Source: an uncultured Bacteroidota bacterium
Lineage (GTDB): Bacteria; Bacteroidota; Bacteroidia; Bacteroidales; JAAUTT01
Reading direction: 5' to 3'
DNA length: 64,000 bases
Assembly: GCA_963846585.1 (NCBI GenBank)
Contig: CAWJWO010000003.1
Span: 140,505 to 204,504 of the forward strand
Shown piece after piece: positions 8,820 through 61,323 of this stretch (position 1 is its first letter; each line of letters begins with the position of its first letter). The notes beneath the pieces are model-generated. The model saw nothing but the letters and a program-made list of their open reading frames with translations. It ran no database searches and was not told the origin of the DNA. The translations under genes and the position numbers were made by a program.

Positions 8820-9095
8820 TTACCGGTTTATTGTGATGTATCCTATTTTTTCCTTTTCACCGTTATTGAAATTTATTATGTAGAAATAAGTTCCGTTTGG
8901 TAAATTATTGTTAATCAGTATTCCGGCATTTGCAACTCCATTCCAGTCGTTTTGATAATTTTTACTTTCATATACCTTATCACCCCATCTGTTGAATACC
9001 TGAAGTGTAATTTGGAACTGTTCAGCTCCTTTTATAACGAAATAATCGTTTATACCATCACCGTTGGGCGAGAAACCTTCAGGAATGAAAACCTT
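8820..9095 (-). other. T9SS type-B C-terminal sorting domain (coding sub-region of the giant adhesin)
   Basis: The last ~91 aa, KVFIPEGFSPNGDGINDYFVIKG...NRWGDKVYES...WNG...LPNGTYFYII...GYITINR, match the gliding-motility-associated C-terminal domain pattern. Confidence 0.8.
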
Positions 9096-21980: not shown

Positions 21981-22244
21981 CCAATTAATGTATTAAATTC
22001 AAATGTACAGATTAGAGAGTTACTTATTCTTTTATATTTGATTAACGATAATTAGTTATCAAAATAACTATTCAAAAATAAGATTTGCCTTACTTTAATA
22101 AAGTTAGGTATTTAATTATGTTAATTACCTAATTAAAGATGATATATGTTTAATTTATTGGTGATCTGTATCAATTAACAATCCGTTTTATGACTTATCT
22201 TTGTACGGTACCATAATTACTGTTTTTTGTTTACAGTTTATTTT

Positions 22245-22285
22245 TTACTGTTAACTGTTTACTGTTTACTGTTAACTGTTAACTG
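22245..22285. repeat. (ACTGTTW)x~6 heptamer array
   Basis: ttactgttaactgtttactgtttactgttaactgttaactg, read directly. Confidence 0.9.
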
Positions 22286-29100: not shown

Positions 29101-29285
29101 CGCGCTATTATTTCAGGCTCAAGGGAAACAAGGCTAAAAACATTGACTCCGAAAAGCAGATGTGTTTGTATACATTAAATCAATTGGCCAGATATACTGA
29201 AGTTTTTAAACAAAAAGATTTGAGTGCCAAAATACAAAATACTTTGCAGGGCTATGTTCAAAATATGGCACCAAACGAACAATAA
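26175..29285 (+). CDS. DUF2723-domain (TMEM260-like, GT-C type putative glycosyltransferase) large membrane protein
   Basis: The ORF is open from 26142; the likely start is ATG at 26175 (MKKFKRINNIAGW..). The N-terminal half has many TM segments (..FWDCGEFISCGYKLEVSHPPGYP..) and the C-terminal half is soluble. Architecture and size (~1036 aa) are typical of Bacteroidota DUF2723 proteins. Confidence 0.7.
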   Translation: MKKFKRINNIAGWVIFATAAIVYMFTSEPTASFWDCGEFISCGYKLEVSHPPGYPMFAMICRVVAMFAGGDVHKVPMAMNTYSGMASAFAVLFLFWIITHLAMKIVGKKDEYSLKEIIMVIGSGAVGALAFTFSDSFWFSASETIVFSSSTMFAALIVWSILKWENCADEKYSNRWLVLIAYLMGLTIGIHLLNLLSIPALGLVYYFRKYKVSRKGLIIAILVSITVLGVIMYGIIQGTFVVASWFELLFVNGFGLPYNSGWIFFIVALITFIVWGIRYTARNGKPLWNTILLCFSMIMLGYSSYTMTIIRSNAGTPLSEGSPSNLFSLIAYLSREQYGDRPLLYGQYYNAPVTDQKEGATIWGQKDGKYVATGHKPVYVYDPRFCTLFPRMWSAESNHVGEYKKWANIKGTPIETTNQQGEPQTLYKPTFAENMSFFLQYQVGWMYLRYFMWNFSGRQNDLQGYGDNLNGNWISGINFVDEWRLGPQNNLPEIKSGYKFKHNPAHNTYFMLPLILGLIGLLFHYQKHNKDFWVVLILFLMTGLGILLYLNQYPMQPRERDYSYVGSFFAFSIWIGLGVMSLIYWAGKHLPGVLAAIGVTVVCLACVPIRMAQQNWNDHNRSGRFTSTDFAFDYLNSCEKNAIIFTNGDNDTFPLWCVQEVFGVRPDVRVVNLSYLGADWYIDQMERKVNDSDPLPFSMTHEKYKTGTRDALYVVDRLNGQYADLKEVMKFVASDNEETKTLPNAREKVDYLPAKNFSMKVDKQAVIDNKVVSEKFDNYIVPEMKFELTNPRSREKKSYRSVIFKNDMMVLDLIAQNDWKRPIYFAITVGDENYLGLEKYFRLDGLAYRLVPIASQGDRQDGQYGIIDTKILYENLMNKFKWGNVANPKVYIDENNMRMLSNFRNNFARLAQQLINENKVDSAVKVLDKCFKVLPVDQVPVNVWTLPLIEQYYRANQIAKANNLTQKLYDSINDEARYYFRLKGNKAKNIDSEKQMCLYTLNQLARYTEVFKQKDLSAKIQNTLQGYVQNMAPNEQ

Positions 29286-29286
29286 G

Positions 29287-29346
29287 TGTCAGTAAGAAAA
29301 CACCAATTTTTTTGTTACGCTCGTCAGAAAAATGCTCATTTGTTAA
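29287..29346 (+). repeat. Single copy of a ~57-bp repeat module (TGTCAGYAAGAAAACACCAA...GTTAYGCTCRTCA.AAAAATGCTCATTT)
   Basis: About 85% identical by eye to the left arm of the 36911-37029 palindrome. Begins 1 nt after the DUF2723 gene stop codon. Confidence 0.8.
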
Positions 29347-29349
29347 ATT

Positions 29350-29374
29350 AGGGACACGCACAAGGCGTGTCCCT
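29350..29374. terminator. GC-rich perfect hairpin between convergent genes (candidate bidirectional terminator)
   Basis: AGGGACACGC (29350-29359), loop ACAAG, GCGTGTCCCT (29365-29374), giving a 10-bp perfect stem. It is followed by ACATTTTC and lies between the DUF2723 gene (+) and mdh (-). Confidence 0.55.
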
Positions 29375-29426
29375 ACATTTTCAATCTTTACAACTATATT
29401 AAATTTAATTGTCTCAGATTTTTAAT

Positions 29427-29496
29427 CCTGGTTCCTGGCTCTTGGCTCTTGGCTCTTGGCTCTTGGTTCCTGGTTTTTGGTTCTTGGTTCTTGATT
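29427..29496. repeat. (CYTGGYT)x10 heptamer array abutting the mdh stop codon
   Basis: CCTGGTT CCTGGCT CTTGGCT x3 CTTGGTT CCTGGTT TTTGGTT CTTGGTT CTTGATT. The mdh TAG stop is at 29497-29499. Confidence 0.95.
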
Positions 29497-30438
29497 CTAC
29501 AAAACTTTCATTTCATACAGGACATTATTCATACTCCGCACTGCTTCGGCACTTTTATTAAAAACGGCCTGCTCCTCAGTATTCAGTTTGTAATCAATAA
29601 TTTTTTCCCAACCGCTTTTTCCTATAACTACAGGCACTCCCATACAAATATCTTTTTGTGAGTATTCTCCCTCCAGGAATATGCAACAAGGGATGGTTTT
29701 CTTTTCATCACGCACAATGGATTCAACCAATGCACCACAAGCTGCACCGGGGGCATACCAGGCTGAAGTACCCAATAATTTGGTAAGCGTGGCGCCCCCT
29801 ACCATTGTGTCATCTGCTACTTTTTTTACAGTTTCCTTGTCAAGTAATGTTGACACAGGAACACCCTGATAAGTGGCAAAACGCGTAAGAGGTATCATAG
29901 TTGTATCACCATGTCCTCCAATAACAACCCCTTGTATATCGCTTGCCGGTGTATTTAATGCCTGGCTTAAATAATATTTAAAACGCGAACTGTCAAGTAT
30001 ACCTCCCATGCCGATTATCCGGTTTTTAGGTAACCCGCTTGATTTAAGTGCCAGATAGGTCATCGTATCCATAGGATTACTAATAACGACTATAATTGCA
30101 TTTGGGGAATATTTAAGAATATTTTGCGTAACATCTTTTACAATACCGGCATTGATGCCAATTAAATCTTCTCTTGACATACCAGGTTTACGTGGTATTC
30201 CGGATGTTATTACTACTACATCGGATTTTGAAGTTTTGCTGTAATCGCCTGTAACCCCAATTATTCGGCTATCGAAACCAATTAATGCAGAGGTTTGCAA
30301 CATATCCAATGCTTTACCTTCGGCTATTCCTTCCATAATGTCGAGTAATACTATTTCGCTCGCCAATTCTTTCTGTGCTATTACATTTGCACAGGTTGCA
30401 CCGACGTTGCCGGCACCTATCACAGTAATTTTACTCAT
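29497..30438 (-). CDS. mdh: Malate dehydrogenase (LDH-like family)
   Basis: 313 aa. N-terminal Rossmann motif KITVIGAGNVGA, catalytic region IGGHGDTTMIPL. Overall LDH-like MDH pattern. Confidence 0.88.
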   Translation of the reverse strand: MSKITVIGAGNVGATCANVIAQKELASEIVLLDIMEGIAEGKALDMLQTSALIGFDSRIIGVTGDYSKTSKSDVVVITSGIPRKPGMSREDLIGINAGIVKDVTQNILKYSPNAIIVVISNPMDTMTYLALKSSGLPKNRIIGMGGILDSSRFKYYLSQALNTPASDIQGVVIGGHGDTTMIPLTRFATYQGVPVSTLLDKETVKKVADDTMVGGATLTKLLGTSAWYAPGAACGALVESIVRDEKKTIPCCIFLEGEYSQKDICMGVPVVIGKSGWEKIIDYKLNTEEQAVFNKSAEAVRSMNNVLYEMKVL

Positions 30439-31206: not shown

Positions 31207-31423
31207 GAACCAGGAGCCAAGAGCCAGGATTTGAGATGTTAAAAAGAGGACAGAGAACAGAAGACAGATATAAGATAAATGATTTGAGATTTGAGATTTG
31301 AGAATCCAGATTTAAGATTTGAGATTTTTAATTCAGTAAGACTATTAAAATCCTAATTCTAGAATCAAAAATCTAGAATCTTAAATCATAAAGTCTTGGT
31401 TCCTGGTTCCTGGTTCCTGGTTC
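31207..31423. repeat. Composite STR block: (GAACCAGG-like) at 31207-31229, (GACAGAA) at 31247-31270, (GATTTGA)x~6 at 31281-31327, (TCTAGAATC) x2 at 31357-31387, (TGGTTCC)x4 at 31395-31423
   Basis: Read directly. The two outermost arrays are reverse complements of each other. Confidence 0.9.
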
Positions 31424-36297: not shown

Positions 36298-36909
36298 ATG
36301 AAAAAAATCACTTTAATAATAGGCATGCTTGTGTCATTAAACACAATAATGTTTTCAGAAGGTTATAAAACCGGTGATAATGCATCCGACTTTAAACTGA
36401 AAAACGTAGACGGAAAATTTGTTTCCCTGGCAGACTTCCCCAACGCCAAAGGTTTCGTGGTTATTTTTACGTGTAACCATTGTCCGTTTGCAAAAGCTTA
36501 CCAGGACAGGATTATAGAAATAGATAGAAAATATAAACAGTTAGGATATCCTGTGGTTGCAATAAATTCTAACGATCCGGGTCTCTCGCCTGAAGATTCA
36601 TATGATCAGATGATTGTAAGGGCCAAAGAAAAAGGTTTCACCTTCCCGTATTTGTTTGATGAAACCCAGACTGTATATCGTACTTATGGCGCTACAAGGA
36701 CACCACATGTATTTCTGCTTCAAAAGCAGGGTAAGAATTTAGTTGTGAAATATATTGGTGCAATAGACGATAATTACGAGGATGCAACAAAAGTGTCCCA
36801 ACCTTATCTTGCAAATGCTTTAAATAGTGTAATAGCAGGCAAATCTCCCGATCCGTCATATACCAAAGCTATAGGCTGTTCCATTAAAGATAAAACTGCT
36901 TCTAATTAA
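36298..36909 (+). CDS. Thioredoxin-fold (redoxin/AhpC-TSA-like) protein
   Basis: 203 aa with a signal peptide and CxxC motif FTCNHCPFAKAY. Starts 13 nt after the TlpA-like gene. Confidence 0.7.
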   Translation: MKKITLIIGMLVSLNTIMFSEGYKTGDNASDFKLKNVDGKFVSLADFPNAKGFVVIFTCNHCPFAKAYQDRIIEIDRKYKQLGYPVVAINSNDPGLSPEDSYDQMIVRAKEKGFTFPYLFDETQTVYRTYGATRTPHVFLLQKQGKNLVVKYIGAIDDNYEDATKVSQPYLANALNSVIAGKSPDPSYTKAIGCSIKDKTASN

Positions 36910-36910
36910 T

Positions 36911-37029
36911 TGTCAGCAAGAAAACACCAATATCTTCGTTATGCTCATCATAAAAATGCTCATTTACTAAAGTAAACTGCGCTTTTTATGATTTCGCATG
37001 CCTTGATCTTGGCGTTTTCTTATCTGACA
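36911..37029. repeat. 119-bp imperfect palindrome made of two inverted copies of the ~57-bp module (MITE/REP-like or structured RNA)
   Basis: Left arm TGTCAGCAAGAAAACACCAATATCTTCGTTATGCTCATCATAAAAATGCTCATTTAC. The reverse complement of the right arm is TGTCAGATAAGAAAACGCCAAGATCAAGGCATGCGAAATCATAAAAAGCGCAGTTTAC. Centre is TAAA. Begins 1 nt after a stop codon. Confidence 0.85.
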
Positions 37030-37086
37030 AGATTTAAGTAAATAGATTTTTATATTGTAATTTGACTTTAATGGCAATAGTTTGGA

Positions 37087-37190
37087 TCATAAAGTTCGTA
37101 GCCGAGGCTTGCGAAGTTTAAAAATCAGGAGTTTACTTACGTAAATGACTGATTTTTAAACGAGCGTAACGAAGGCTACGGACTTTATGG
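37087..37190. repeat. Second ~104-bp imperfect palindrome sharing the module core (CTTCGTTACGCTCGTTTAAAAATCAGTCATTTAC) but with different termini
   Basis: Arms are TCATAAAGTTCGTAGCC...GTTTAAAAATCAG..TTTAC and their inverse. A 13-bp perfect inner stem, GTTTAAAAATCAG/CTGATTTTTAAAC, flanks the centre TTACGTAA. Confidence 0.8.
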
Positions 37191-37201
37191 ACAAACTGTA
37201 A

Positions 37202-38182
37202 TTATTCGAATTCCAATGCCAACCCTATAGCAATGGGGTATAGCAAAGGACCTTTATTCGATTCAAATAACGGTGTAAGGTAATAATTTGCAAAAACCAG
37301 CAGGGAATGATAGCCAACCCTTGCCGTTACTCCATATCTGAAAGGATTAAGGTTGAAATCGTCATAATTTTTAGCAGTTTTTTCATTGCCATTGGCAGTA
37401 TATATAACTTTAGTGTGATCACCAAGCTTCAAGGCCCCAATAATTCCTGCTGAAAAATTAATCCCGTCATTAAACTTAATTTCAAAAATTATTGGAATAG
37501 TAAGGAAAACCGTTGCCAATTTGCTCTTTTCTATTGCAGTATCTTTTAAGTTATAATAATATCCAATTGTATTGCCGTTTATATCTTTACCCAAGGTATT
37601 ATTATTCTCAAAATAGTAATTGCATAATTCAAGACCTAACCCGGTAACTGCTCCAAATTTATCAGAAACAATACCAAAACTGTGCTGGAAAAAATTTATA
37701 TTAAAATCCAGTGATCTGCTGGTCCTGATATTCATAAAACTGTTTGATGAATTCCGCACGATTGAAAAATTATTGTCCGCAAAATTATTTAATGCCAACT
37801 CAATTCCGGCATATTGACCCTTGAACCTGTGATGTTTATCATAATTATTCTTGTTATTATCTTCATAACCGTTATCTTCAAAATCGTCATTTTTAATATC
37901 AGAAACGGTATCATTTTGACCCTTTGTTTTAATAGTAATAACCGTTCCATTGGACGTTTTGGTTATAATTACCATTTTATTACCAATCCTTAAACGTGTG
38001 GTATCTTTTTTATGTTCAACATTACTAATCGTATTATTATCAACTATTACTCTTGTACTGTCTTTATCTTTAACTACTGTAAGAGTATTATCATCAACTT
38101 TAACCGTTGTAGAGTCAGCCTGACTGTATAATGTTATCATATACAGCATTAATCCTGACAGAATTAAGTATGTTTTTTTCAT
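37202..38182 (-). CDS. Outer-membrane beta-barrel (porin-family) protein
   Basis: 326 aa with a signal peptide. The C-terminal half has alternating beta-strand patterns ending ..YPIAIGLALEFE. Lies downstream of the sigma/anti-sigma pair. Confidence 0.55.
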   Translation of the reverse strand: MKKTYLILSGLMLYMITLYSQADSTTVKVDDNTLTVVKDKDSTRVIVDNNTISNVEHKKDTTRLRIGNKMVIITKTSNGTVITIKTKGQNDTVSDIKNDDFEDNGYEDNNKNNYDKHHRFKGQYAGIELALNNFADNNFSIVRNSSNSFMNIRTSRSLDFNINFFQHSFGIVSDKFGAVTGLGLELCNYYFENNNTLGKDINGNTIGYYYNLKDTAIEKSKLATVFLTIPIIFEIKFNDGINFSAGIIGALKLGDHTKVIYTANGNEKTAKNYDDFNLNPFRYGVTARVGYHSLLVFANYYLTPLFESNKGPLLYPIAIGLALEFE

Positions 38183-38250
38183 ATAATCTTTTTTAAATGG
38201 ATTATTATATAAACTTTCAGGAATAGGACGGATATGGGAGATTAAAAGTT

Positions 38251-38313
38251 ACAGGTTACAGGTTACAGGTTGCAGGTTACAGGTTACAGGTTGCAGGTTG
38301 CTGATTACAGGTT
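38251..38313. repeat. (RCAGGTT)x9 heptamer array abutting the anti-sigma stop codon
   Basis: ACAGGTT x3, GCAGGTT, ACAGGTT x2, GCAGGTT, GCTGATT, ACAGGTT. The TAA stop (38312-38314) overlaps the array by 2 nt. Confidence 0.95.
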
Positions 38314-39343
38314 ATTGGGTATTTTTTGATTGGTAAAAACCGATCAGAGGCGTTTCAAAAGATATTATTTTTCTTGATTTTCCCTTTTTATTTGAAAATT
38401 TCAAATAATTACCAGTTATATCGTTGATTTGTTGAATTTTAGATTTAACAAATGCCATTATTACTGAACTCGCATAATTGTTAATTATTGAATCAGGCTT
38501 TGACCTTGCCAATAAATTCATAGGGTCTATAGTATCTCTTGTAGAATTTATCAGTTTTATTGTCCTGGCGGGAATTATATTTAATTCCAATACATAAAGG
38601 GTCCTGTCAGGATTCAAATCATTATCGGACGATAATTTATCCACGCTATCTGTTAAGTTTGTTATTCCTGTATCTTTAACAGTCCGAATAATATTCCTTT
38701 TTGTATATTGCTGATATGCCTGACTGAATATGACTTTATTTGAGGTACTGTTTTTAGTTATGTTTTGGCTGATAGCTATATGTTTTTGATTCTTAGGAAC
38801 TGAAATTGATATTTTATTAATATGGTTAATATCACTTTTATTATATCGTGAAAAAACCGATGCTATCACCAGAAAAACAACTATTGATGCAGCTATTCCC
38901 AATAAGCCGGCAACCGACACTGAACCTATATTATGCCTCTTTAATCTTCCTTTATACTGGTACCGGATTGTATTATCGGGCTGAAACCTTGATTTTGTAA
39001 ACAATTCAAAATCTTTTGATTTAGAAGGATTGTTAATGATAAACTTTTTTAACTCATCTTTCTGGATATCAGAAAGGTCATCTTCAGTATAAGCAATGCA
39101 AAAGTCATTAAAATTATAACGGTTTACAGGTAATTGCAGTTTTTTACCTTTTTTCAGGTATTCTTTATCAGCAAATGAAATATTATCCTGATTTACAGGC
39201 TTAACTTCCATTTCTTCCAGTTGCTGCTTAATATCAGGATTTTCAGATAAAAACAATAGAAAGTATTCCATCTCCGGTGGACTAAGTTTGCCTTCGAGGT
39301 AATCTATGCAATATTGTTCGTAATTATTTCTATTTATGATCAT
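38312..39343 (-). CDS. Putative membrane-anchored anti-sigma factor
   Basis: 343 aa. The N-terminal YCIDYLEGKLSPPEMEYFLLFLSENPD segment is typical of Bacteroidota anti-sigma N-termini. Single TM (VAGLLGIAASIVVFLVIASVF). Sits downstream of an ECF sigma gene. Confidence 0.55.
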   Translation of the reverse strand: MIINRNNYEQYCIDYLEGKLSPPEMEYFLLFLSENPDIKQQLEEMEVKPVNQDNISFADKEYLKKGKKLQLPVNRYNFNDFCIAYTEDDLSDIQKDELKKFIINNPSKSKDFELFTKSRFQPDNTIRYQYKGRLKRHNIGSVSVAGLLGIAASIVVFLVIASVFSRYNKSDINHINKISISVPKNQKHIAISQNITKNSTSNKVIFSQAYQQYTKRNIIRTVKDTGITNLTDSVDKLSSDNDLNPDRTLYVLELNIIPARTIKLINSTRDTIDPMNLLARSKPDSIINNYASSVIMAFVKSKIQQINDITGNYLKFSNKKGKSRKIISFETPLIGFYQSKNTQ

Positions 39344-39360: not shown

Positions 39361-39575
39361 GAACCAGGAACCAAGACCTGAAAATAGTTGTTAGTTTTTA
39401 GTTGCTGGTTGTTAGTATATAGATTTTAGTGCATAGTGCTTAGTGCTTAGTATTTAACAACCTTTATAATTTATATAAACATTATAAACTTTAAACGAAT
39501 AAACAAATAAACGAATAAACTAAATAAGCACTATGCATCAAACACTATGCACTAAGCACTATGCACTATGCACTA
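39361..39575. repeat. Composite STR block between ECF sigma and anti-sigma genes: GAACCAGG at 39361-39378, TAGTTGY at 39385-39417, TAGTGCW at 39427-39452, (AAACGAAT/AAACAAAT) at 39493-39527, inverted GCACTAW at 39528-39575
   Basis: Read directly. The arrays at 39427-39452 and 39528-39575 are reverse complements of each other. Confidence 0.9.
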
Positions 39576-40058
39576 AATTACCGCCTCAGGACTCCCGATA
39601 TAATTCTTTAAAAAGAGCCTTGCCCTGTAAATGTATACTTTCACCTGAGATTCATTAAGTTCGGTTATTTTACCAATTTCTTCATATGAATATCCTTCAT
39701 AATCCCTGAGCAATACAACAGACTTTTGAATTTCAGGCAGCATTTCCAAACCCTTGTCGAGAACTTCACTAAGATCGGAATACTGATTGTTATGAATTAA
39801 AGCTTCGGGTTTAACCTCATTAAAGTTACCTTGTTTTTTTTCATGTCGTAACAAGTCAATAATCAGGTGATAAGCTGTAGTAAATAGGTATGATTTTGAT
39901 TTTTCGAATTGCACCTCATCAACCCTTATCCATAATTTTTCAAAGCTATCCTGCACAATATCAGATGATTTATCTTTATCCTTCAGATTTTTAAGGATAA
40001 ATCTGTAGAGATTATCAGAAAATAAATCAACACATGTATTGAATTCCCCGGTAGTCAT
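39573..40058 (-). CDS. ECF-type RNA polymerase sigma-70 family factor
   Basis: 161 aa. Region 2 (..DIVQDSFEKLW...YLFTTAYHLIIDLLR) and region 4 HTH (..VVLLRDYEGYSYEEIGKITELNESQVKVYIYRAR). Confidence 0.85.
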   Translation of the reverse strand: MTTGEFNTCVDLFSDNLYRFILKNLKDKDKSSDIVQDSFEKLWIRVDEVQFEKSKSYLFTTAYHLIIDLLRHEKKQGNFNEVKPEALIHNNQYSDLSEVLDKGLEMLPEIQKSVVLLRDYEGYSYEEIGKITELNESQVKVYIYRARLFLKNYIGSPEAVI

Positions 40059-40317
40059 TAAAAATATACACTCATTTTTACTATGACGGGTATAACATAT
40101 AAAAAGTTACAGCTGTTATTGTAACATTTTGGTCACTTAACCGTCATACGATTAACAATTTTAAAATTAATTTCATTACCATCTCCAATTTTGCATAATA
40201 AAATTTTATTATGATAAAAACAAACAACAGACATTATTTACAAGTGTTGATTTTAAATTATATTAAGATATTGGGTTCAGTATAGGTGCCGGATACAATT
40301 TCAGCAATAAAATGAGC

Positions 40318-40416
40318 TTATATAACAATATTGCTAGCTAACAACCTAACATCCTCAAAAATCTCTTTGGATTTTAAAACCCGATAATCAATATAATCTT
40401 GCTTTGTGCCAGGCAT
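40318..40416 (-). pseudogene. Truncated HEPN-domain toxin remnant (32 codons) coupled to the MNT gene
   Basis: I translated this by hand as MPGTKQDYIDYRVLKSKEIFEDVRLLASNIVI*. Its ATG overlaps the MNT stop (TAATG). The sequence resembles the first helix of HEPN partners of MNT nucleotidyltransferases, but stops after 32 aa where about 110-130 would be expected. Confidence 0.55.
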
Positions 40417-40736
40417 TATAAATAAATCCCCTCTCTTTTAATATTTTGATAAAGAGGAGTAATTCCATGTTTTTGCTCCCACTCACTTTTTGAAAATACA
40501 AATGTTGAAATAGGTTCTCCTATTTCAAGCTCAATATCAAAAAGTTCATCTCTATATTCTTTCTCTATCATTCGAGTAACATCGGTTTGATTAAGAAGTA
40601 TCAATATATCCCAATCTGAATCATTATGGGATTGTCCACGAGCATGTGAACCAAAAAGAATTATATCAGCAGAAGGATTTTTCTTCTTAATCCTTGCCTT
40701 AATCAATTGTGTGATATTAATTTCCTTTGTATTCAT
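40416..40736 (-). CDS. MNT-type nucleotidyltransferase-domain protein (antitoxin-like)
   Basis: Minimal NTase motif ILFGSHARG......SDWDILIL. The likely start is ATG at 40736 (MNTKEINITQ); the ORF track extends to 40778. Confidence 0.8.
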   Translation of the reverse strand: MNTKEINITQLIKARIKKKNPSADIILFGSHARGQSHNDSDWDILILLNQTDVTRMIEKEYRDELFDIELEIGEPISTFVFSKSEWEQKHGITPLYQNIKREGIYL

Positions 40737-40914
40737 ATAGCAAATATAACCTGAACTATGTAGATTCGCAAATAACATGATACTTCAAATTATAGCCCGG
40801 GTTTATTTCCCGTGCATAGCTTATGGGATTGTTTGGAGATCCCCGCACACCCGGGATTAAGTCCGGACTGCGTTCTATAGTATAGCTTATATAGAAAAAG
40901 AATTTAGTATCTTT

Positions 40915-41106
40915 GTGAAAAATATGCATATGAGCACTAAAACTGTAAAACCAACCAAGGAAAAAAGTTGGGCTCTTCCTGGAGCAAAGTTTACACATGT
41001 AGAATTTGTTGAGAAAATACGCAAAGCTGAAGAAGGCCCTTTCTACACGCTTGTAGAAATAAAAGAAATGCGTAAACAATGGAAGAATTCAAAGAAAGAC
41101 CTGTAG
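40915..41106 (+). CDS. Small putative antitoxin (positional call)
   Basis: 63-aa ORF (GTG at 40915; alternative ATGs at 40924 and 40930) immediately upstream of the ParE/RelE-like toxin gene, overlapping it by 28 nt. Confidence 0.45.
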   Translation: MKNMHMSTKTVKPTKEKSWALPGAKFTHVEFVEKIRKAEEGPFYTLVEIKEMRKQWKNSKKDL

Positions 41107-41414
41107 CGTATTCCAAACAATATGCAATAGATACACTTGAAATATATCTCTACGGTATAGAAACTTTTGGAGAATACCTAGCCAATAAATACGAAGATCT
41201 TATAGATAAAATTACATCCGAACTTTCTCAAAATTATTGGATGTACCCTGAATGTAGACATTTACCCACAAAAGGACATATATATCGGAATGTCATTCTT
41301 GAATCTCATTTGATTATTTACCGTGTAAAGACTGAAAGATTAGAAGTGCTGGGTGTTTTTCACTCCAAATCAAGTATTACCAGGATAAGAACAGCCCGCA
41401 ATCTTAAAATTTAA
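41079..41414 (+). CDS. ParE/RelE-family type II toxin
   Basis: 111 aa. Pattern ..YSKQYAIDTLEIYLY....G......YEDLIDKI...L...P..........YR......HLIIYRV....LEVLGVFH is typical of ParE-like toxins. Confidence 0.65.
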   Translation: MEEFKERPVAYSKQYAIDTLEIYLYGIETFGEYLANKYEDLIDKITSELSQNYWMYPECRHLPTKGHIYRNVILESHLIIYRVKTERLEVLGVFHSKSSITRIRTARNLKI

Positions 41415-41426
41415 TGCAGGATTTCT

Positions 41427-42191
41427 TTAACCCTCCCAATTTCTAAAAAACTTCTTGCTATAAGCCACACAAAATACCAGTATAATTGCTGAACTTATAA
41501 AAGGCTGCCAATGCATAGCCGATTCCTTTAAAATACATTGAGTTTCGTCAGGTAAATGAGTCGGGGAATATAACCCGGCTTTACCGAGCATAGAAATACC
41601 CACTGATAAAAAGGTAGTACCCAATGCCAAAATACCTGCTAATAAAGAAGTTTTGACCAAAATGCTATAAAAAATAGTAATAAACTGAATGACTATTAAA
41701 TACAAAAGTAAGACAAACACAATTTTAGTAATAACAATAATTGGAAATGATCCAAAAAAAACATGTGTGTACAATACTATCGTAATATATCCTGCAAACA
41801 TGGAAACAAAAAGGGAAATCAATTGAGATGAAAACTTGCTAAAAATAAACAGATTTCTTGAAACAGGTTTAACAAGCAAAAAAACAGCCGTTCCAGTTTC
41901 CTTTTCCTTTGCGACTGTCCCCATATTCAGCAGAATTAATATAAAAACACCCAGTTGAGAAATATTTTTTGTGTATTGCGCGATTGCATCTTTCCATGTA
42001 CTTTCAGGAACTTTTATATAGATATTTTGGTCTTTCATCGTGGAAGAAAGCATTGCCGGTAAATATTTTGCAAGAAGAGGAGAAATGATTCCAAAAAATA
42101 TAAATACCACAACTAAAATTATAAAACGCCCCGACCTTATTTGTTCAATCAACTCTTTATGGATAAGCACCCCAAATTGGTTTGTTTTCAT
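41427..42191 (-). CDS. ABC-2 type transporter permease
   Basis: 254 aa with 6 predicted TM segments. Starts 10 nt downstream of the ABC ATPase gene. Confidence 0.7.
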   Translation of the reverse strand: MKTNQFGVLIHKELIEQIRSGRFIILVVVFIFFGIISPLLAKYLPAMLSSTMKDQNIYIKVPESTWKDAIAQYTKNISQLGVFILILLNMGTVAKEKETGTAVFLLVKPVSRNLFIFSKFSSQLISLFVSMFAGYITIVLYTHVFFGSFPIIVITKIVFVLLLYLIVIQFITIFYSILVKTSLLAGILALGTTFLSVGISMLGKAGLYSPTHLPDETQCILKESAMHWQPFISSAIILVFCVAYSKKFFRNWEG

Positions 42192-42201
42192 TTGATTGGA
42201 A

Positions 42202-43125
42202 TTATTGTAACAACTTCACAAAAATATCTTCAAGGTTGGCATCTAAAATTTCAAACTTGCTGACAGAAAAATGTTTTACAGAAATAAATTCAAAAATTTC
42301 ATTCTTAATTTGCTCAATATTCAATGCATTTATCCGTAATTTATTATTTTCATCATTAGAAACAATATCCCAATTCAGGTCGCGTACAGAATTTATAAAT
42401 GATTGCATTGACTCACCGGTTTCAAACACCATTTCGATTTGCCGGGACGAATACTTCTTTTTCAACTCCTGCATGGATCCCTGAATCACCAATTTTCCTT
42501 TATCGATAATGGCAACTGCATCACATATTCTTTCAACATCAGAAAGAATATGTGTAGACATAAAAATGGTTATGTCCTTTTTAAGATGCATGATAAATTC
42601 CAATATTTTTTTTCTGCCCATTGGATCAAGTGCTGAAGTCGGTTCATCCAAAAACAATACATCAGGTTTGCCCATCAGTGCCTGTGCTATCCCCAACCGT
42701 TGGAGCATCCCCCCTGAATAAGCTGAGATTTTTTTATTTGCTGCTTCACTCAAACCTGCAATGTCTAATAATTCACCGGCCCTTTTTTTGCTTTCAACAT
42801 GGGAAAAACCAAATACCTTTCCAACAAATACCAATAGTTCCATGCCTCTCATAAAACCGTACATCCTGGGTTCCTGACCAAGATACCCGATTTTTTGCCT
42901 CAGCCGGATTGAGTTTGCTTTTACTTCCTCGCCGGCTACAGTGGCTTCACCACTAGTGGGTTTCATCAATCCTGTTAAAATCTTTATTGTAGTAGTTTTC
43001 CCTGAACCATTGGGACCCAGAAAACCAAATACAGTATTCTCCTTCACAGATAAGTCAAGGCCGCTTAAAGCAAACAAGGATTCACCCGCATACCGTTTTT
43101 TTATGCCACTACAGTTTATTATCAT
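42202..43125 (-). CDS. ABC transporter ATP-binding protein
   Basis: 307 aa. Walker A GPNGSGKTT, signature YSGGMLQR, Walker B VLFLDEPTSALD. Confidence 0.88.
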   Translation of the reverse strand: MIINCSGIKKRYAGESLFALSGLDLSVKENTVFGFLGPNGSGKTTTIKILTGLMKPTSGEATVAGEEVKANSIRLRQKIGYLGQEPRMYGFMRGMELLVFVGKVFGFSHVESKKRAGELLDIAGLSEAANKKISAYSGGMLQRLGIAQALMGKPDVLFLDEPTSALDPMGRKKILEFIMHLKKDITIFMSTHILSDVERICDAVAIIDKGKLVIQGSMQELKKKYSSRQIEMVFETGESMQSFINSVRDLNWDIVSNDENNKLRINALNIEQIKNEIFEFISVKHFSVSKFEILDANLEDIFVKLLQ

Positions 43126-43321
43126 CCGGGGTTTTGATTAGGACAATATAAAGGATAGACCCGATAAAGGATATACAGATAAATAAAGCCAGCCATAACC
43201 ATTTGCTCATCCATCTGAATTGTTTTCTTTTCAGCCAGTCGAAAAGGCAATACAGAATCAGTCCGAACTGTATAATAACTATAGGAATGATTGCCCACAA
43301 ATTCATCATCTCATTTTTCAT
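43109..43321 (-). CDS. PLD-nuclease-N-terminal-domain (PLDc_N) small membrane protein
   Basis: 70 aa with two TM helices and a conserved W...........G...Y layout (..KWLWLALFICISFIGSILYIVL). Overlaps the ABC ATPase start by 17 nt. Confidence 0.55.
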   Translation of the reverse strand: MKNEMMNLWAIIPIVIIQFGLILYCLFDWLKRKQFRWMSKWLWLALFICISFIGSILYIVLIKTPDDNKL

Positions 43322-43388
43322 ATTATTTTATATTATAAATCCTTATATTATCCTTCCGTTTATAAAGTTAAATTTTTCATAGGTTACA

Positions 43389-43607
43389 TTATTTTAATAT
43401 GAATTGCGATAACACTATAATTAATACAATACAAATAAATAATATCCAGGCATATGGACTTGTAAAATTTACAGTCCAACCCAATAGTGGATAAATTTTG
43501 GGAACAATTAACCCAGGGTCTTTACGATTATAGTAAAATGGGCCTTTCCAATTACCCGGGTCTTTCCTCATCGTATCAAGGATTTCTTTTTCAATTTTAA
43601 TTTTCAT
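43389..43607 (-). CDS. DUF5808-like small membrane protein
   Basis: 72 aa. The motif WKGPFYYNRKDPGLIVPK....GWTVNF resembles the DUF5808 signature. Confidence 0.55.
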   Translation of the reverse strand: MKIKIEKEILDTMRKDPGNWKGPFYYNRKDPGLIVPKIYPLLGWTVNFTSPYAWILFICIVLIIVLSQFILK

Positions 43608-44218
43608 AATAAGTGCGTGTTGTATATTGAAATCAGATACAGAGAAAACAACAAAGTCAGAATTATTGAAATTATAAATACGATGATAAAAAGTACAACT
43701 GATTTTGTTCCTTTCAGGTTTGCAGAAAGTCTGATCGCGTTAAACATAAGTGTGATCATCCATATTGTAGTTAATAAATTAAAAATCATCAAGGAGACAG
43801 CAATTATAACATTACCTGTTGTTAAATTAACCGGATTACCGTAATGAAGTCCTTTCCAAAGTATATATTTTGAAAATAGATTATAGGAATTTGAGAAGAA
43901 GCCTGTAAATGAAGCAAAGAAATATGGATATCGTGCCAGTGCCTGTGTACCTATGATATCGATAAAACGCACCGAAGATGCTGAAAAAATGATGGTCCCT
44001 AAATATAATATTATAGAAAAAATAAGCCAGTTCGCGAGACTTTGAATTATAAAATAGCAAAGTGGAAAGGAAGGACAAAGTTTTACAGAAATTAAATCAG
44101 GAAAATGTGTATGGCTTAAAAATCCTATACAAGCTGTGGCCAATATGATTAAAATTCCTGCAATAAGAGATTTTACACCTGCAATAAATTTAAACGGATT
44201 AAATAAAATTGAAATCAT
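43604..44218 (-). CDS. Multi-pass membrane protein (hypothetical; Yip1-like topology)
   Basis: 204 aa with about 5 TM segments. Its start overlaps the upstream gene and its stop overlaps the downstream gene, each as a 4-nt ATGA overlap. Confidence 0.5.
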   Translation of the reverse strand: MISILFNPFKFIAGVKSLIAGILIILATACIGFLSHTHFPDLISVKLCPSFPLCYFIIQSLANWLIFSIILYLGTIIFSASSVRFIDIIGTQALARYPYFFASFTGFFSNSYNLFSKYILWKGLHYGNPVNLTTGNVIIAVSLMIFNLLTTIWMITLMFNAIRLSANLKGTKSVVLFIIVFIISIILTLLFSLYLISIYNTHLL

Positions 44219-44496
44219 TGGTTATCTTTTTTAAGTTTAACAATTTTATATATAAGGTCATCCAACATATTACGCACAGTCGGATAACTTAATTTTAACT
44301 TTTGTGACATAATTTTTAAGCTGCCGCTGCACTGGATAAAATCCATAATAAACTCCTGTTCCTGCTGCTCCAGTTGCAGCAGGACAGGTAACTCATAGGT
44401 TCCGCTTATGGTGGTTTGACATGAATCACAAACGAGGCTTTGCACATTTAATGATGATTTGCAACTTGGACAAATCACAGGCAACTTCTTATCCAT
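44215..44496 (-). CDS. DUF2089-family protein (zinc ribbon + HTH)
   Basis: 93 aa. CPSC...(11)...CDSC zinc ribbon followed by an HTH-like segment, LKLSYPTVRNMLDDLI. First gene of the 6-gene operon. Confidence 0.65.
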   Translation of the reverse strand: MDKKLPVICPSCKSSLNVQSLVCDSCQTTISGTYELPVLLQLEQQEQEFIMDFIQCSGSLKIMSQKLKLSYPTVRNMLDDLIYKIVKLKKDNQ

Positions 44497-44654
44497 ATTT
44501 TCATTTTAATTTTCACAAATATAAACACGAAATTCATAAATACAAATAAATTATTAATATTATTTAATATACATTTAATTATATTTATATATTACTAAAT
44601 AAATTTGAAATCAGACCGGTTTTTATATCATTTCCAATAACTATCAAGAAACAA

Positions 44655-48684: not shown

Positions 48685-48920
48685 AGATGTGCAGATGTGT
48701 AAATTTACAGATGGTGAATAATTACTTATTACTAATGACAAATGAAAAGAGAGCCAGGAACCAAGAACCAGGAACCAAGACTAGGAACATGTAACTTGTA
48801 ACCTGTAACCTGCAACCAGTAATATATTAATACATAAACCTTATAGACCTTATCAACCTTATCAACCTTATCAACCTTATAAATTGAATAAACGAAAATA
48901 CTTTATAAACTTCATAAACG
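48684..48920. repeat. Composite STR block: (CAGATGTG-like) at 48684-48716, (CCAGGAACCAAGA) at 48750-48787, (TGTAACC/TGCAACC) at 48788-48823, (AACCTTATC)x~4.5 at 48837-48881, (CATAAAC-like) at 48901-48920
   Basis: Read directly downstream of the GT-C gene. Confidence 0.9.
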
Positions 48921-48934
48921 ATTAATAATAAGCT

Positions 48935-51280
48935 ATGAAAACTATCCTTCTATCTTTATTGACTGTTTTATTTATTGGATCAGTAAATGGCCAAAATGCT
49001 AAAAAATTTTTTAAAACAGGTGACGAGTTTTATAAAGCAGGAAATTTCAAGGATGCTATTAATCAATTTACCAATGCAATAAGCGTAAATCCGGAATATA
49101 AGGAAGCTTATTTCATGAGAGGCAAAGCTTATATAATTTTGAAAAATTTCGATAAAGCTGTGGATGATTTAAATCGTGCAATAATTTTCGAACCACAGAA
49201 TGAAGAGATATTTTATAACCTTGGGGTAACTTATAACAATCTTAATAAATATAAGGAAGCTCTTGATGATTTAAATCATGCAACATTCCTGAATAAAAAA
49301 TATATTCCGGCTTACCAGGAAAAAATAATCAGTTTGATGGCCCTGGATCAAAATTACAGTGCTTTAAAAGTTAGTGACACTGCTCTTGCTCTTGAAGGAA
49401 GTGCCCGTAATTATTACTTATACGGATTGGTAACACAAAATCTGAATTCTGCGCAAAAAGCAGAATGGGCCTTTACAAAAGCAATAAAGGAAGATAAAAA
49501 ATATATCGATGCATATGTTGCATTGGCCATATTGCAGGCGAATTATCTGAATAAGCCGGAAGAAGCTATGGTGCATTGTAATGAAGCACTTAAAATGGAA
49601 CCAAATTCGATATCAGCCCTTATTGCCCGAAGCAAAGTATATATAAAAATACTTGATTACCGTAATGCCATTGACGACTTATCAAAGGCAATAGTTATTA
49701 ATCCAGACAACGAAGATTTATTCCTGCTTCGTGGAATATATTATCAGGAATTTAAGCAGCATCAGAATGCAATAGACGATTTTAATAAAGTGATTGATCT
49801 GGATCCTAAAAATGCCGAGGCCCTATACAAACGTGCCAATTCCTATGAAGAAATATCTGATTTTAAAGGAGCTATAAAGGATTATCAAACACTGGTCCAA
49901 CTATCCGAATATGATGTAAAAGCAAAAAAATTATTAAAACAATCAAAGGATAGGCTATATGAACTTAAAAGAGAATCTAACAACCCTGTAATAACAATAC
50001 AGGATCCGGCTCCAAAAGACAAAAAAATCATTGAAATACCTAATAATAAGCATGTTGTCCAAATAAAGGGTTATGTAACAGATGAAAGTGATCTAAGCTA
50101 TATAAGGATTAATAATAAAAATATAACCTATAAAAATATTGACGGACAGAACCAATTTATAGCCGGTTTAAATATTGACAGCCTTGAATCAATATATATA
50201 TCTGCCTCTGACGTTTATAATAATGTTGAAAAGATGAATTTTATTATAAAAAGAACTGAAACTAATCCGCCTAAAGTAACAATATTAGCACCTTTGGCTT
50301 CCGATAACGGTGAAATTTATCTTGACAACAATGATGCCGTACTTTATGTGGAAGGGAAAATAACTGACGAAAGTCCTATAAAATCAATAATAATCGATGA
50401 TGTTTCTGCAAGTTTTGCAATTGATGAATTAAATCCAAAGTTTTCCGCCAATATAAATATTTCCAACAAAAATAAATTCACTGTAACAGCAACTGATATT
50501 TATGGAAACGGAATACCGGTCACTTTCAGGATTAACCGTGAAAATGCCTCTTTATTCGGATCAAACCCTATGGGTAAGACCTGGGTGATTTTTATCGAAA
50601 ATTCCAATTACCGTACATTTGCAAGCCTTGAAGGGCCAACTAAAGATGTTACCCTTATGAAAACTGCACTGGCTAAATACCAGGTTAATAACTTTGTTCA
50701 CAAAAAAGACCTTACAAAGGAACAAATGGAAAAATTCTTTTCAATTGAGTTAAGAGACCTGGTTAAAAGTAACCGCGTAAATACTTTATTGATATGGTAT
50801 GCCGGCCATGGTAAGTTTATTAACGAAACAGGCTATTGGATTCCAATTGATGCTAACCGCGACGATGAATTCACATATTTTAATATTAACTTTTTGAGGG
50901 CATCGTTACAATCCTATTCAACAGTTACACATAAACTTGTAATTTCAGATGCCTGCGAGTCGGGACCGACATTTTTCCAGGCTATGCGTTCCTCCTTAAA
51001 GGAACGAAGTTGCGATGACTGGCAGGCAACCCGGCTTAAATCGTCACAGGTATATTCCTCAGCCGGATATGAACTTGCCCAAGACTATTCTAAATTTACG
51101 AAAGCAATTGCCAATTTATTAGCTAGTAATCCGAATGCTTGTATTCCAATAGAAAGCATAGTTTTAAAGGTAAATTCATCATTACCCCAGGATAGCCAGC
51201 AAAAACCAAAATTTGGCAAAATCGCGGGCCTTGCTGATGAAGACGGAACTTTTTTCTTTATTGCCAGGGAAAGAAGATAG
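48935..51280 (+). CDS. Secreted TPR-repeat / Ig-like / caspase (peptidase C14) domain protein
   Basis: 781 aa. Signal peptide, about 8 TPR units (aa 20-340), beta-sandwich-like middle region, and a C-terminal caspase His/Cys dyad (LLIWYAGHGKF ... KLVISDACESGPTF). Confidence 0.8.
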   Translation: MKTILLSLLTVLFIGSVNGQNAKKFFKTGDEFYKAGNFKDAINQFTNAISVNPEYKEAYFMRGKAYIILKNFDKAVDDLNRAIIFEPQNEEIFYNLGVTYNNLNKYKEALDDLNHATFLNKKYIPAYQEKIISLMALDQNYSALKVSDTALALEGSARNYYLYGLVTQNLNSAQKAEWAFTKAIKEDKKYIDAYVALAILQANYLNKPEEAMVHCNEALKMEPNSISALIARSKVYIKILDYRNAIDDLSKAIVINPDNEDLFLLRGIYYQEFKQHQNAIDDFNKVIDLDPKNAEALYKRANSYEEISDFKGAIKDYQTLVQLSEYDVKAKKLLKQSKDRLYELKRESNNPVITIQDPAPKDKKIIEIPNNKHVVQIKGYVTDESDLSYIRINNKNITYKNIDGQNQFIAGLNIDSLESIYISASDVYNNVEKMNFIIKRTETNPPKVTILAPLASDNGEIYLDNNDAVLYVEGKITDESPIKSIIIDDVSASFAIDELNPKFSANINISNKNKFTVTATDIYGNGIPVTFRINRENASLFGSNPMGKTWVIFIENSNYRTFASLEGPTKDVTLMKTALAKYQVNNFVHKKDLTKEQMEKFFSIELRDLVKSNRVNTLLIWYAGHGKFINETGYWIPIDANRDDEFTYFNINFLRASLQSYSTVTHKLVISDACESGPTFFQAMRSSLKERSCDDWQATRLKSSQVYSSAGYELAQDYSKFTKAIANLLASNPNACIPIESIVLKVNSSLPQDSQQKPKFGKIAGLADEDGTFFFIARERR

Positions 51281-51455
51281 TGCATAGTGAATAGTGCATA
51301 GTGCATAGTGCATAGTGCATAGTAATTTGTGCTTAGTATATACAATATAACATTTTAACTGATGGCATTTATTGCTTTGGCCCCAGGCCTCTGGCCCCTG
51401 ATCCCTGGCCCCTGGTCCCTGATCCCTGGCCCCTGGTCCCTAGCCCCTAGCCCCC
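51277..51455. repeat. (ATAGTGC)x~8 at 51277-51338 and a C-tract array (CCCTGRYC-like)x~10 at 51379-51455
   Basis: Read directly. The first array supplies the TAG stop of the caspase gene (51278-51280). Confidence 0.95.
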
Positions 51456-51458
51456 GAC

Positions 51459-51502
51459 ACTCTGACGAGCATAACGGAGAAGTTGGCTTTTTCTTATTGA
51501 CA
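51459..51502 (-). repeat. Truncated inverted copy of the ~57-bp module
   Basis: The reverse complement reads TGTCAATAAGAAAAAGCCAACTTCTCCGTTATGCTCGTCAGAGTG. It matches the module up to GTTATGCTCGTCAGA and then runs into the C-tract array. Confidence 0.7.
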
Positions 51503-54766: not shown

Positions 54767-55303
54767 TTATTGGCAGACACTGAATAATTGGGATGGAGTG
54801 TCAATAATATGCCACAAATTCCTGTTTTTATCCTGCATGAATTTTTTATTTATCAACTCATTAATAAATAACATAAATGTGTTATAAAAACCATTTGTAT
54901 TCACAATTATAATAGGTATATCAATCCTTCCCAATTGTTTTAAAGTGGTTACTTCCATTAGTTCTTCCAATGTCCCTATTCCTCCAGGTAAAGCTATTAC
55001 TGCATCAACATTTTCAATCAATCTTTTTTTGCGTTCATGCATATCTTCAACCAATATCATGTCCGCAACATTGCTGTGTGCCCATTCCAAATCCACCATG
55101 AAATTTGGAATAACACCTGTAATTTTGCCATTAAGTTTTAACACCCTGTCTGCAAATGCTCCCATTAACCCCTTAGCCCCGCCACCAAACAAAACATGAA
55201 TTCCATTTTCAACACAAATATCAGCCAATTTGACTGCAACATCAAGATATATTTGATCTGCTTCACTACTTGATGCACAAAACAAACATATTGTCTTTAA
55301 CAT
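54767..55303 (-). CDS. LOG-family (TIGR00730) Rossmann-fold nucleotide-binding protein
   Basis: GGGAKGLMGA and PGGIGTLEE motifs. The likely start is ATG at 55303 (MLKTICLFCASS). The ORF-track extension to 55441 translates tandem-repeat DNA. Confidence 0.8.
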   Translation of the reverse strand: MLKTICLFCASSSEADQIYLDVAVKLADICVENGIHVLFGGGAKGLMGAFADRVLKLNGKITGVIPNFMVDLEWAHSNVADMILVEDMHERKKRLIENVDAVIALPGGIGTLEELMEVTTLKQLGRIDIPIIIVNTNGFYNTFMLFINELINKKFMQDKNRNLWHIIDTPSQLFSVCQ

Positions 55304-55304
55304 G

Positions 55305-55532
55305 TGGGGGGGGGTAGGGATTAGTGGCCAGGGGTTAGTGGTTAATTGCAGGTTACAGGATAAAAGTGATGAAGTGATGAAGTGATGAGGTGATGAAGTG
55401 ATTAAGTTTATAAGATTTCCCATAAACTTTATAAACCTCATAAACCAATTAGTAATTTGTAATCAGTAATTTGTAATTTGTAATTTGTCATCTGCACATC
55501 TGCACATCTGCACATTTTCACATCTGCACATT
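55305..55532. repeat. Composite STR block: G-tract words at 55305-55341, GCAGGTT at 55346-55360, (GTGATGAA)x~5 at 55365-55406, (CATAAAC-like) at 55421-55446, (AGTAATTTGTAAT-like) at 55448-55488, (CATCTGCA)x~5 at 55489-55532
   Basis: Read directly. The block fills the whole spacer between trxA and the LOG-family gene. Confidence 0.9.
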
Positions 55533-61214: not shown

Positions 61215-61323
61215 GGGCTAGGGGCTAGGGACTAGGGACTAGGGGCTAGGGACCAGGGACTAGGGACTAGGGACCAGGGACTAGTTGTTGGTTGCAGGTT
61301 ACAGGTTGCAGGTTGCAGGTTTT
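61193..61323. repeat. (GGGRCYA)x13 heptamer array at 61193-61284, followed by (GCAGGTT/ACAGGTT)x~5 at 61285-61323
   Basis: The 13 heptamers were counted by hand. The array begins inside the last codons of mpl. Confidence 0.95.

Follow-up and report, generated by a model that had tools for sequence, protein, structure and literature searches.

The window analysed here, by which we mean the whole stretch of 64,000 nucleotides, carries four related repeats. The first (A) directly follows the stop codon of a 1047-amino acid TMEM260-like gene and faces a malate dehydrogenase gene; B lies after an AhpC/TSA gene; C lies after a convergent gene specifying a 326-amino acid protein without a Pfam match; and D is antisense in the 5' region of a sensor gene, where it adjoins a GC-rich heptamer array. 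The gene content of the window is Bacteroidota-like, a giant CHU_C protein which adjoins a PorP/SprF gene being one among other such features. All four copies claimed in the original prediction are present: two complete hairpins (B and C), the left half of one (A) and a truncated left end (D). Their parts, where X and Y are the two arms of the core and types i and ii are two kinds of outer arm, are located as follows.

29287..29346, + strand: copy A, an exact left half comprising a type ii arm, the X core and the 5' side of the inner stems
29350..29383, + strand: ordinary intrinsic terminator downstream of A, AGGGACACGC-ACAAG-GCGTGTCCCT, then ACATTTTC
36903..36908, + strand: TAATTA hexamer at the target-duplication position at the left end of B, its geometry assigned by analogy with bounded relatives
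36909..37031, + strand: element B, foldback copy, complete, its outer arms of type ii, TGTCAGCAAGAAAACACCAA / TTGGCGTTTTCTTATCTGACA
36934..36948, + strand: X core of B, CTTCGTTATGCTCAT, a motif also found in the family consensus
36991..37005, + strand: Y core of B in + strand reading, ATTTCGCATGCCTTG, the reverse complement of CAAGGCATGCGAAAT
37061..37080, + strand: TTGACTTTAATGGCAATAG, which resembles the R2 repeat of type i elements (consensus GACTTTATGGACAGAC)
37078..37201, - strand: element C, foldback copy, complete, its outer arms of type i (- strand reading: CAGTTTGTCCATAAAGTCCGTAGCC)
37103..37117, + strand: Y core of C, CGAGGCTTGCGAAGT
37160..37174, + strand: X core of C in + strand reading, ACGAGCGTAACGAAG
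37199..37204, - strand: TAATTA hexamer at the duplication position at the left (X) end of C
51459..51502, - strand: copy D, a truncated left end with a type ii arm and the X core

The repeat had been described as a 57-bp module. The sequence does recur, and it corresponds to one arm of a hairpin of approximately 125 nt rather than to the whole unit. The different termini noted for C are likewise real; they represent two outer-arm subfamilies, both common outside the window, since the family has at least two kinds of outer arm, the GTCTGTCCATAAAG type (as in C) and the GCAAGAAAAC type (as in A, B and D). The arms of the core are not equivalent, X carrying CTTCGTTAYGCTCRT and Y carrying CRAGGCWTGCGAART, and the cores of B and C are reverse complements of each other. 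In B the + strand, sense for the upstream AhpC/TSA gene, has the X arm first, and the - strand pairs better; in C it is the - strand, sense for the convergent gene, that has X first, and the + strand pairs better. Each hairpin thus faces its own upstream gene alike, and so does A. The predicted folding energies are -42.7 kcal/mol on the + strand (z -8.0) and -52.1 on the - strand (z -9.0) for B (36911-37029), and -57.8 on the + strand (z -12.2) and -42.4 on the - strand (z -9.2) for C (37087-37190, extending to 37080-37196). None of these values was equalled by any shuffle.

A covariance model of the family recognises B (119.9 bits, E 2.6e-30) and C (123.6 bits, E 2.4e-31), the only strong matches within the window, and the closest relative of B, locus L039, has the same ATTGTCAGCAAG end. 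Copy A, which ends at the hairpin tip, gives a weak match to the model (E 0.075) and shares 87% identity with the left arm of B across 55 nt (E 1.7e-10). Copy D is weak by BLAST; the truncated inverted copy is nevertheless genuine, for the degenerate pattern TGTCANNAAGAAAANNCCAAN7GTTAYGCTCRTCA, which joins the outer arm to the inner motif, matches exactly A, the left arm of B, and D, with 0 matches expected from shuffles. No ORF of at least 60 amino acids lies inside the window copies. No Rfam family matches the repeats: at the gathering threshold the window contains a tRNA-Glu alone, and a permissive search of Rfam 15 with the window copies and two relatives returned only generic miRNA-precursor hairpins, far below threshold.

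Further copies had been anticipated, and many relatives of the repeat exist beyond the window. Genomes were scanned for the two inner motifs at a spacing of 35–50 nt, which matched at least 119 stretches, and the tally for the family stands at no fewer than 150 copies spread over at least 119 genome stretches. Within the first 100 loci a covariance model, for which 117 non-redundant copies were used, finds 135 copies; the exact search pattern is missing from 31 of these. The near-invariance of the inner motifs is partly inflated because the search pattern itself required these core motifs; the copies found by the model only still keep them with few changes. Among the matches listed, most are in Bacteroidota. 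Within the Bacteroidales the carriers are Alistipes, Tidjanibacter, Bacteroidaceae, Paludibacteraceae, Marinilabiliaceae (among whose matches are many copies from Anaerophaga thermohalophila) and Prolixibacteraceae; elsewhere in the phylum they are Flavobacteriales, Cytophagales (Fulvivirga) and Saprospiraceae. A few matches fall in MAGs labelled Desulfobacteraceae, Deltaproteobacteria, Melainabacteria, Chlorobiota and Caldiserica. The G+C content of the host loci ranges from 31% to 65%. Copy number can be considerable: two Anaerophaga thermohalophila assemblies contain at least 22 copies and MAG S143_32 at least nine, and the density in the window is four copies in 64 kb. The core pattern had 0 matches in 2.9 million viral contigs, and BLAST searches of element C against plasmids and of the Anaerophaga copy L062 against phages gave no match. 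The literature holds no account of the family that could be found by sequence string or keyword; it seems to be undescribed so far, with the proviso that absence there is no proof of novelty.

The better preserved relatives reveal the anatomy of a complete element, a long imperfect palindrome of ca. 125–165 bp. In the 22 Anaerophaga copies the order is: a hexamer, a left repeat L (GTGTCTGTCCATAAAG..), the core hairpin, a first right-hand repeat R1, a short spacer, a second right-hand repeat R2, and the identical hexamer. R1 and R2 are inverted copies of L, such that the outer arms double as terminal inverted repeats; R2 is also present in other well-preserved relatives. The core hairpin enclosed by these arms is approximately 67 nt long and reads, on the better-pairing strand, ..CAAGGCUUGCGAAGU-stem-apical stem-loop-stem-ACGAGCRUAACRCAG... 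Over 51 elements the L and R2 ends agree at 10–13 of 14 positions, with the consensus end GTGTCTGTCCATAA; the family end sequences for comparison are GTGYCTGTCCATAAAG or of the GCAAGAAAAC type. An IHF site is not conserved and the Bacteroidota promoter motif TAnnTTTG is absent, both judged from the consensus by eye.

The flanking hexamers constitute a 6-bp target-site duplication with the consensus TAWWTA, the length between the duplications being 115–164 bp. The two hexamers are exactly alike in 38 of 55 elements and share at least five of six bases in 44 of 55. The next hexamer outward yields 0 exact pairs, and permuted partners give 6.6 on average and 14 at most. Twenty-six of the exact pairs are non-palindromic direct repeats, and no pair at all is inverted without also being direct. 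For this count the ends were set solely by similarity to the consensus end and the flanks were not used in placement. Ends chosen by arm-to-arm match alone slid into the palindromic TAATTA, which made the flanks meaningless, and were discarded in favour of the consensus-anchored ones. In tandem arrays neighbouring copies have one hexamer in common, and at locus L073 the same terminal repeat and duplication surround unrelated interiors. In Rikenellaceae the copies are simple hairpins whose outer stems vary greatly, and they show no clear duplications.

Based upon these characters the four repeats very probably belong to a non-autonomous, foldback MITE-like family of elements ca. 125–165 bp long which is widespread in Bacteroidota. 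The family displays every MITE feature tested except an identified autonomous partner. The original prediction had spoken of MITE/REP-like mobile elements; terminal repeats, duplication, copy number and empty sites uphold the first half of that description, and the REP half is not supported. The copies in the window are old or damaged. They have neither the right-hand duplication nor R2, only the L and R1 arms being left: B and C have lost R2 and the right duplication, A is a half broken at the tip, and D is a stub. The sequence at 37061–37080, which contains a direct repeat shared with 37181–37194, is possibly the remnant of another copy.

Comparison with related genomes bears on the history of these sites. 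In a related species, whose AhpC is 82% identical, gene order is kept over ca. 20 kb with none of the four copies, ordinary terminators being present, and the syntenic loci L126 and L131 are without all four. At site A the alignment with L131 holds to CAATAAG and breaks exactly at the start of the element. The gene end facing C reads GAATAATTTACA in the orthologue, which has no element, and GAATAATTA followed by the element in the window. At site D the orthologue lacks the copy and has a different 5' gene end. The gap between the AhpC gene and its convergent neighbour in the related species is 141 bp and contains a conventional bidirectional terminator; in a more distant relative only 28 bp separate the convergent genes. 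This pattern of occupied and empty sites fits insertion; two species being compared, a loss from the other lineage is in principle conceivable. It is these sites, together with the relatives, that suggest mobility for the window copies themselves.

The preference for positions just past stop codons that had been proposed from the window was borne out in the family, with a ca. 17-fold enrichment over comparable TAWWTA sites. Of 51 bounded copies, 17 have a duplication that overlaps the stop of an ORF of 100 codons or longer, or creates that stop, against 1.9% of the non-disruptive TAWWTA sites in the same loci that overlap a stop (p 4e-17). Twelve of the stop cases are on the L side and five on the R2 side. 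The stop is formed either by TAA at positions 1–3 of the hexamer or by the TA of the hexamer together with the first G (or A) of the element. Since TAWWTA often contains TAA or makes such a junction stop, copies come to lie at or 1–2 nt past stops. Of 127 pattern matches, two of which are B and C of the window, 40 have the stop of a same-strand ORF 15–36 nt before the core. The stops that had been placed one nucleotide ahead of TGTCAG were located at 29283–29285 (A) and 36907–36909 (B), and that of the convergent gene near C at 37202–37204 on the - strand. The junction originally read as TAA-N-TGTCAG is a consequence of the duplication overlapping or creating a stop codon: in A and B the stop spans the junction, with TA before it and A after it, so that the AhpC/TSA stop straddles hexamer and element, and in C the first three bases of the TAATTA hexamer (- strand) are the stop of the 326-amino acid gene. 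The enrichment may reflect either insertion bias or retention bias.

Copies that begin past stops in a preferred orientation, as imperfect palindromes with conserved unpaired bases and strand-specific folding, bring to mind the attC sites of integrons, the palindromes at the 3' ends of cassettes which fold on one strand and are recombined by IntI; the GTTAYGC motif even has a superficial likeness to the GTTRRRY core site. That motif is internal, 20–27 nt from the end, and its partner is GCAWGCC and not RYYYAAC. The neighbouring genes are syntenic housekeeping genes rather than cassettes, the copies do not form arrays of one orientation, the duplications at their flanks are of varying sequence, identity within the family is far above that among attC sites, and no integrase was found either in the window as far as annotated or in the family loci. 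The core-site test and the genomic context effectively refute an origin as attC sites, to which we would assign next to no probability.

The stems of the family co-vary, and the compensatory changes by which the original prediction proposed to judge it are present. In the 135-copy alignment 84.3% of the cells pair compared with 65.7% after shuffling, and changes on both sides occur in 1,001 cells compared with 324, these figures leaning towards pairing since the alignment was fitted to a related structure; slid controls pair at 37–48%. A 3-bp core helix, UGC/GCR, is paired in 99.2% and shows clean compensations in the raw divergent sequences. The alternative core register UUGCG/CGUAA, which is the favourite of single-sequence folding, was rejected, being 90% paired with no compensatory change. 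The internal loops (GAA opposite GA, and GCU opposite UAA) are near-invariant across orders. A K-turn was considered and dropped, for the position of the would-be sheared G·A co-varies, as read by eye, as a Watson-Crick pair.

The pairing is also strand-specific. The strand with the Y arm first is the more stable in 115 of 117 copies (means of -50.2 and -37.1 kcal/mol), and within the lower stem, which is variable, there are 209 G·U pairs to 15 A·C mismatches, G·U being in excess in 54 of the 59 subfamilies defined by terminal sequence. The two arms of a DNA palindrome can come to co-vary even if the single strand has no function, and the case for such a function is made by the G·U asymmetry alone. 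Changes private to one copy within a genome present another picture, with 34 G·U against 44 A·C (p 0.31) and many transversions. We infer that pairing on the Y-first strand is selected in the sequences that spread and not in each inserted copy; with private mutations unbiased, the hairpin seems to serve the spread of the element rather than the neighbouring gene. One orthologous pair from Tidjanibacter with three compensatory changes hints at host-level or conversion-driven maintenance in some lineages.

The same data must be set against a second proposal of the original prediction, in which the repeats are structured RNAs of 3' UTRs under host selection, serving as terminators or as stabilisers of 3' ends, which are co-transcribed and end or protect the mRNA, and are not primarily mobile. 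Copies directly after stop codons, the strong covariation and the Tidjanibacter pair are what such RNAs would be expected to show, and B and C sit where the related species has its bidirectional terminator. The adjacent gene reads along the X-first strand about twice as often as along the other, and canonical terminators after the element favour that direction (14, compared with four in the other). The corollary is that the strand under selection for pairing is usually antisense to its neighbour, at ca. 2:1; the gene 3' of the better-pairing strand is on the opposite strand in 67 cases and on the same strand in 34, the median distance being 0. The hairpins have no U tract after them, the flanks past the arms being TAATTA-like and not runs of T, and a terminator scan yielded only a spurious 5-bp sub-hairpin inside B. 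Copy A and many relatives are followed by a canonical terminator of its own, separate from the element, from which it follows that A itself is not the terminator. Exact 6-bp direct duplications with terminal inverted repeats, orthologous sites without copies, private mutations which break pairs without bias, and the lack of a matching Rfam family are likewise difficult to reconcile with host-selected RNAs. Orientation and the missing U tract argue against a terminator or 3'-UTR family in particular, and, together with decay that is blind to pairing, they leave this proposal without support as the primary nature of the repeats; we consider it unlikely. Particular copies may have taken on such a role. 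Given the conventional terminator at the same place in the related species, one might speculate that B and C are now the 3'-end hairpins of the two convergent genes. The window repeats are no evidence of a novel regulatory system.

A mobile element could be propagated in more than one way. REP/BIME palindromes, as characterised in PMC3733652, are extragenic, occur in inverted pairs and are thought to act as single-stranded hairpins; they are spread by RAYT, a Y1 transposase like that of IS200/IS605. Strand-specific pairing, the extragenic location, the adjacent inverted copies B and C and a CGTAGCC string in the arm of C would all suit such an origin. REPs, on that same account, are 20–40 bp long with a GTAG or CGTC head and have neither terminal inverted repeats nor a duplication, and the present family shares none of these characters: its elements measure ca. 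125–165 bp, are bounded by terminal inverted repeats and a 6-bp duplication, and have no conserved GTAG or CGTC head in the consensus. Nor does any protein family recur beside the copies. We regard a REP/BIME origin as highly improbable.

For the MITE-like family that we favour, the enzyme was sought among the neighbours and by way of the terminal repeats. The earlier remark that no transposase is nearby holds for the Pfam-annotated part of the window (ca. 1–46.9 kb); a look-up of the protein encoded at 54767–55441 gave no record. All-versus-all clustering of 1,109 ORFs from the loci revealed no protein family recurrent beside the element; the only families obtained (SusC-like, ABC, FtsX, sensor kinase, sigma factor, SDR and LepA) each come from no more than 11 loci. 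An autonomous insertion sequence with the same terminal repeats was sought in ca. 0.85 Mb of loci as end pairs at IS distance with matching hexamers, as long repeats between loci and as solo ends. None was found; what the search did yield was limited to MITEs in tandem arrays, a repeat of 224 bp in the "Deltaproteobacteria" MAG, and further short MITEs with the same ends.

We propose that the element would be moved in trans by a putative transposase which makes 6-bp staggered cuts, insertion duplicating a TAWWTA target; the transposase is hypothetical, as an autonomous element with these terminal repeats was not found in the loci. The hairpin would be needed in cis, on one particular strand, for the propagation of the element, and that strand would act as single-stranded DNA or RNA. 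Strand-specific G·U pairing is a property of the subfamily consensus, with inserted copies gaining pair-breaking mutations without bias; the 2:1 orientation bias with respect to neighbouring genes could be the result of later host selection. A more specific version, which we think rather unlikely, has transposition proceed via a strand-specific single-stranded hairpin of DNA or RNA, in which pairing of L with R1 would restore a duplex terminal repeat and the invariant internal loops (GAA/GA and GCU/UAA) would dock the transposase or a host factor; or else the core would be a mobile RNA module which binds protein and has been passed between MITEs whose termini differ. If true, this would be a mode of mobility which combines hairpin recognition, as in IS200/IS605, attC and the CTX phage, with a classical 6-bp duplication and a strong preference for gene ends.

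Functionally, the closest known systems by analogy appear to be the ERIC and Correia elements. The ERIC or IRU sequences of Enterobacteriaceae and Vibrio are imperfect palindromes of ca. 127 bp, extragenic in transcribed regions by gene ends, conserved across genera, non-coding, and folding in an orientation-dependent manner; we know of no enzyme that mobilises them. The present family is alike in size, palindromic form, gene-end location, cross-genus conservation, non-coding nature and orientation-dependent folding. It differs in belonging to another phylum and having no sequence similarity, and in its clear 6-bp TAWWTA duplication, doubled right-hand repeat and variable arms on a fixed core. 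The Correia elements (CREE/NEMIS) of Neisseria are MITEs of ca. 100–155 bp with terminal inverted repeats, present in many copies and often next to genes; their transcripts can fold into hairpins, and they have a TA duplication, an IHF site and promoter-like ends. MITE size, terminal inverted repeats, target duplication, proximity to genes, hairpin potential and high copy number are held in common. Unlike them the present family duplicates 6 bp, has no conserved IHF site (as judged by eye), and is most conserved in its interior, not its termini.

A catalogue of prokaryotic MITEs lists tens of thousands in Bacteroidota, with terminal inverted repeats and duplications of 2–10 bp (PMC11602168). 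Its clusters rarely cross genus boundaries, many of its MITEs are linked to viruses, and no individual family, hairpin core or stop-codon preference is described (PMC11602168). With catalogued clusters mostly genus-specific the breadth of the present core, which spans several orders and has no viral-contig match, is noteworthy. As a kind, the MITE is known; the conserved structured core with changeable termini is unusual. For annotation, the core model, terminal repeats and TAWWTA duplication provide a precise and testable family definition. These repeats, which are abundant in Bacteroidota, break short-read assemblies, create or replace stop codons and are mistakable for a terminator or a small-RNA gene. 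Three features are jointly unusual for MITEs: a conserved core with changing termini, one-strand pairing selected at the level of spread, and the 17-fold enrichment at stops. Together they make a single-stranded transposition step and gene-end targeting testable in cultured hosts, among them Anaerophaga thermohalophila, Marinilabilia salmonicolor and Fulvivirga imtechensis.

Further short non-coding elements with the ends of the MITE-like foldback family were found at L073, a locus outside the window:

L073:2230-2454, short non-coding element
L073:5225-5402, short non-coding element
L073:6643-6830, short non-coding element

Their ends are those of the foldback family, with GTGYTTGTCCATAAAGTC as terminal repeat and a duplication of the TAAATA type, but their AT-rich interiors are unrelated to that of the family. 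Since common ends enclose unrelated interiors, this terminal repeat defines a MITE group wider than the foldback family. The core of the family, for its part, is kept in a repeated unit of 224 bp from a MAG labelled Deltaproteobacteria, the copies of which are 92% identical:

L015:2039-2262, copy of the 224-bp unit
L103:6627-6850, copy of the 224-bp unit

Because the core motifs are here enclosed by GC-rich stems, the core is maintained across hosts that differ widely in base composition.

Copies of the element often follow one another head to tail, in tandem arrays that repeat every 116-148 bp or so (L080:889-1310, L118, L007, L058 and L123); in some of these an identical hexamer lies between the units. 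Such arrays suggest either that the duplicated target was hit by insertion more than once or that recombination was unequal. The organism of the window was also assembled twice, independently, from short reads, and the Logan contigs L003 and L004 of these assemblies both end at about window position 36956, within the left arm of hairpin B; these breaks are probably due to the inverted repeat or to the family being repetitive.

Short tandem arrays with a unit of 7-9 nt are present in nearly every intergenic region of the window, the unit (TATTAACCT, TGCAACC, TTACTGT, TGGTTCT, GTTACAG, TGGCCCC, AGGGACT and others) differing from array to array.

Examples of tandem arrays in the window
1347-1425
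2743-2810
22217-22285
29429-29498
31281-31327
38248-38314
39525-39576
48750-48883
51277-51323
51378-51454
55364-55531
61192-61284

They are reminiscent of the STRR heptamer repeats, although those are cyanobacterial whereas the host here belongs to the Bacteroidota. A copy of the element in Tidjanibacter is flanked by comparable arrays (unit CAAAATT).

In the Y_Y_Y/Reg_prop sensor gene, the long ORF runs uninterrupted across a GC-rich heptamer array and the truncated copy D (51362-51700). The frame stays open through the array because its 21-nt superunit, with PGPWSLI as the encoded repeat, preserves it. Depending on which start codon is used, the region of array and copy D may encode an N-terminal extension of the sensor protein; the orthologue in the related species has an unrelated N-terminus (MIEDKLNKLIEN..).

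The syntenic locus of that species also lacks a block of ca. 4.5 kb, its sigma-70 gene lying directly beside recX:

about 40059-44654, block between the sigma-70 gene and recX (nucleotidyltransferase, ParE-like toxin pair, ABC transporter and DUF2089 gene)

Elsewhere in the window a PorP/SprF gene adjoins a giant ORF, in which a 267-nt repeat occurs in 8 copies (11377-13505):

7882-8814, PorP/SprF gene
8820-21980, - strand, ORF of 4386 aa with Ig-like, cadherin-like and CHU_C (type IX secretion) domains
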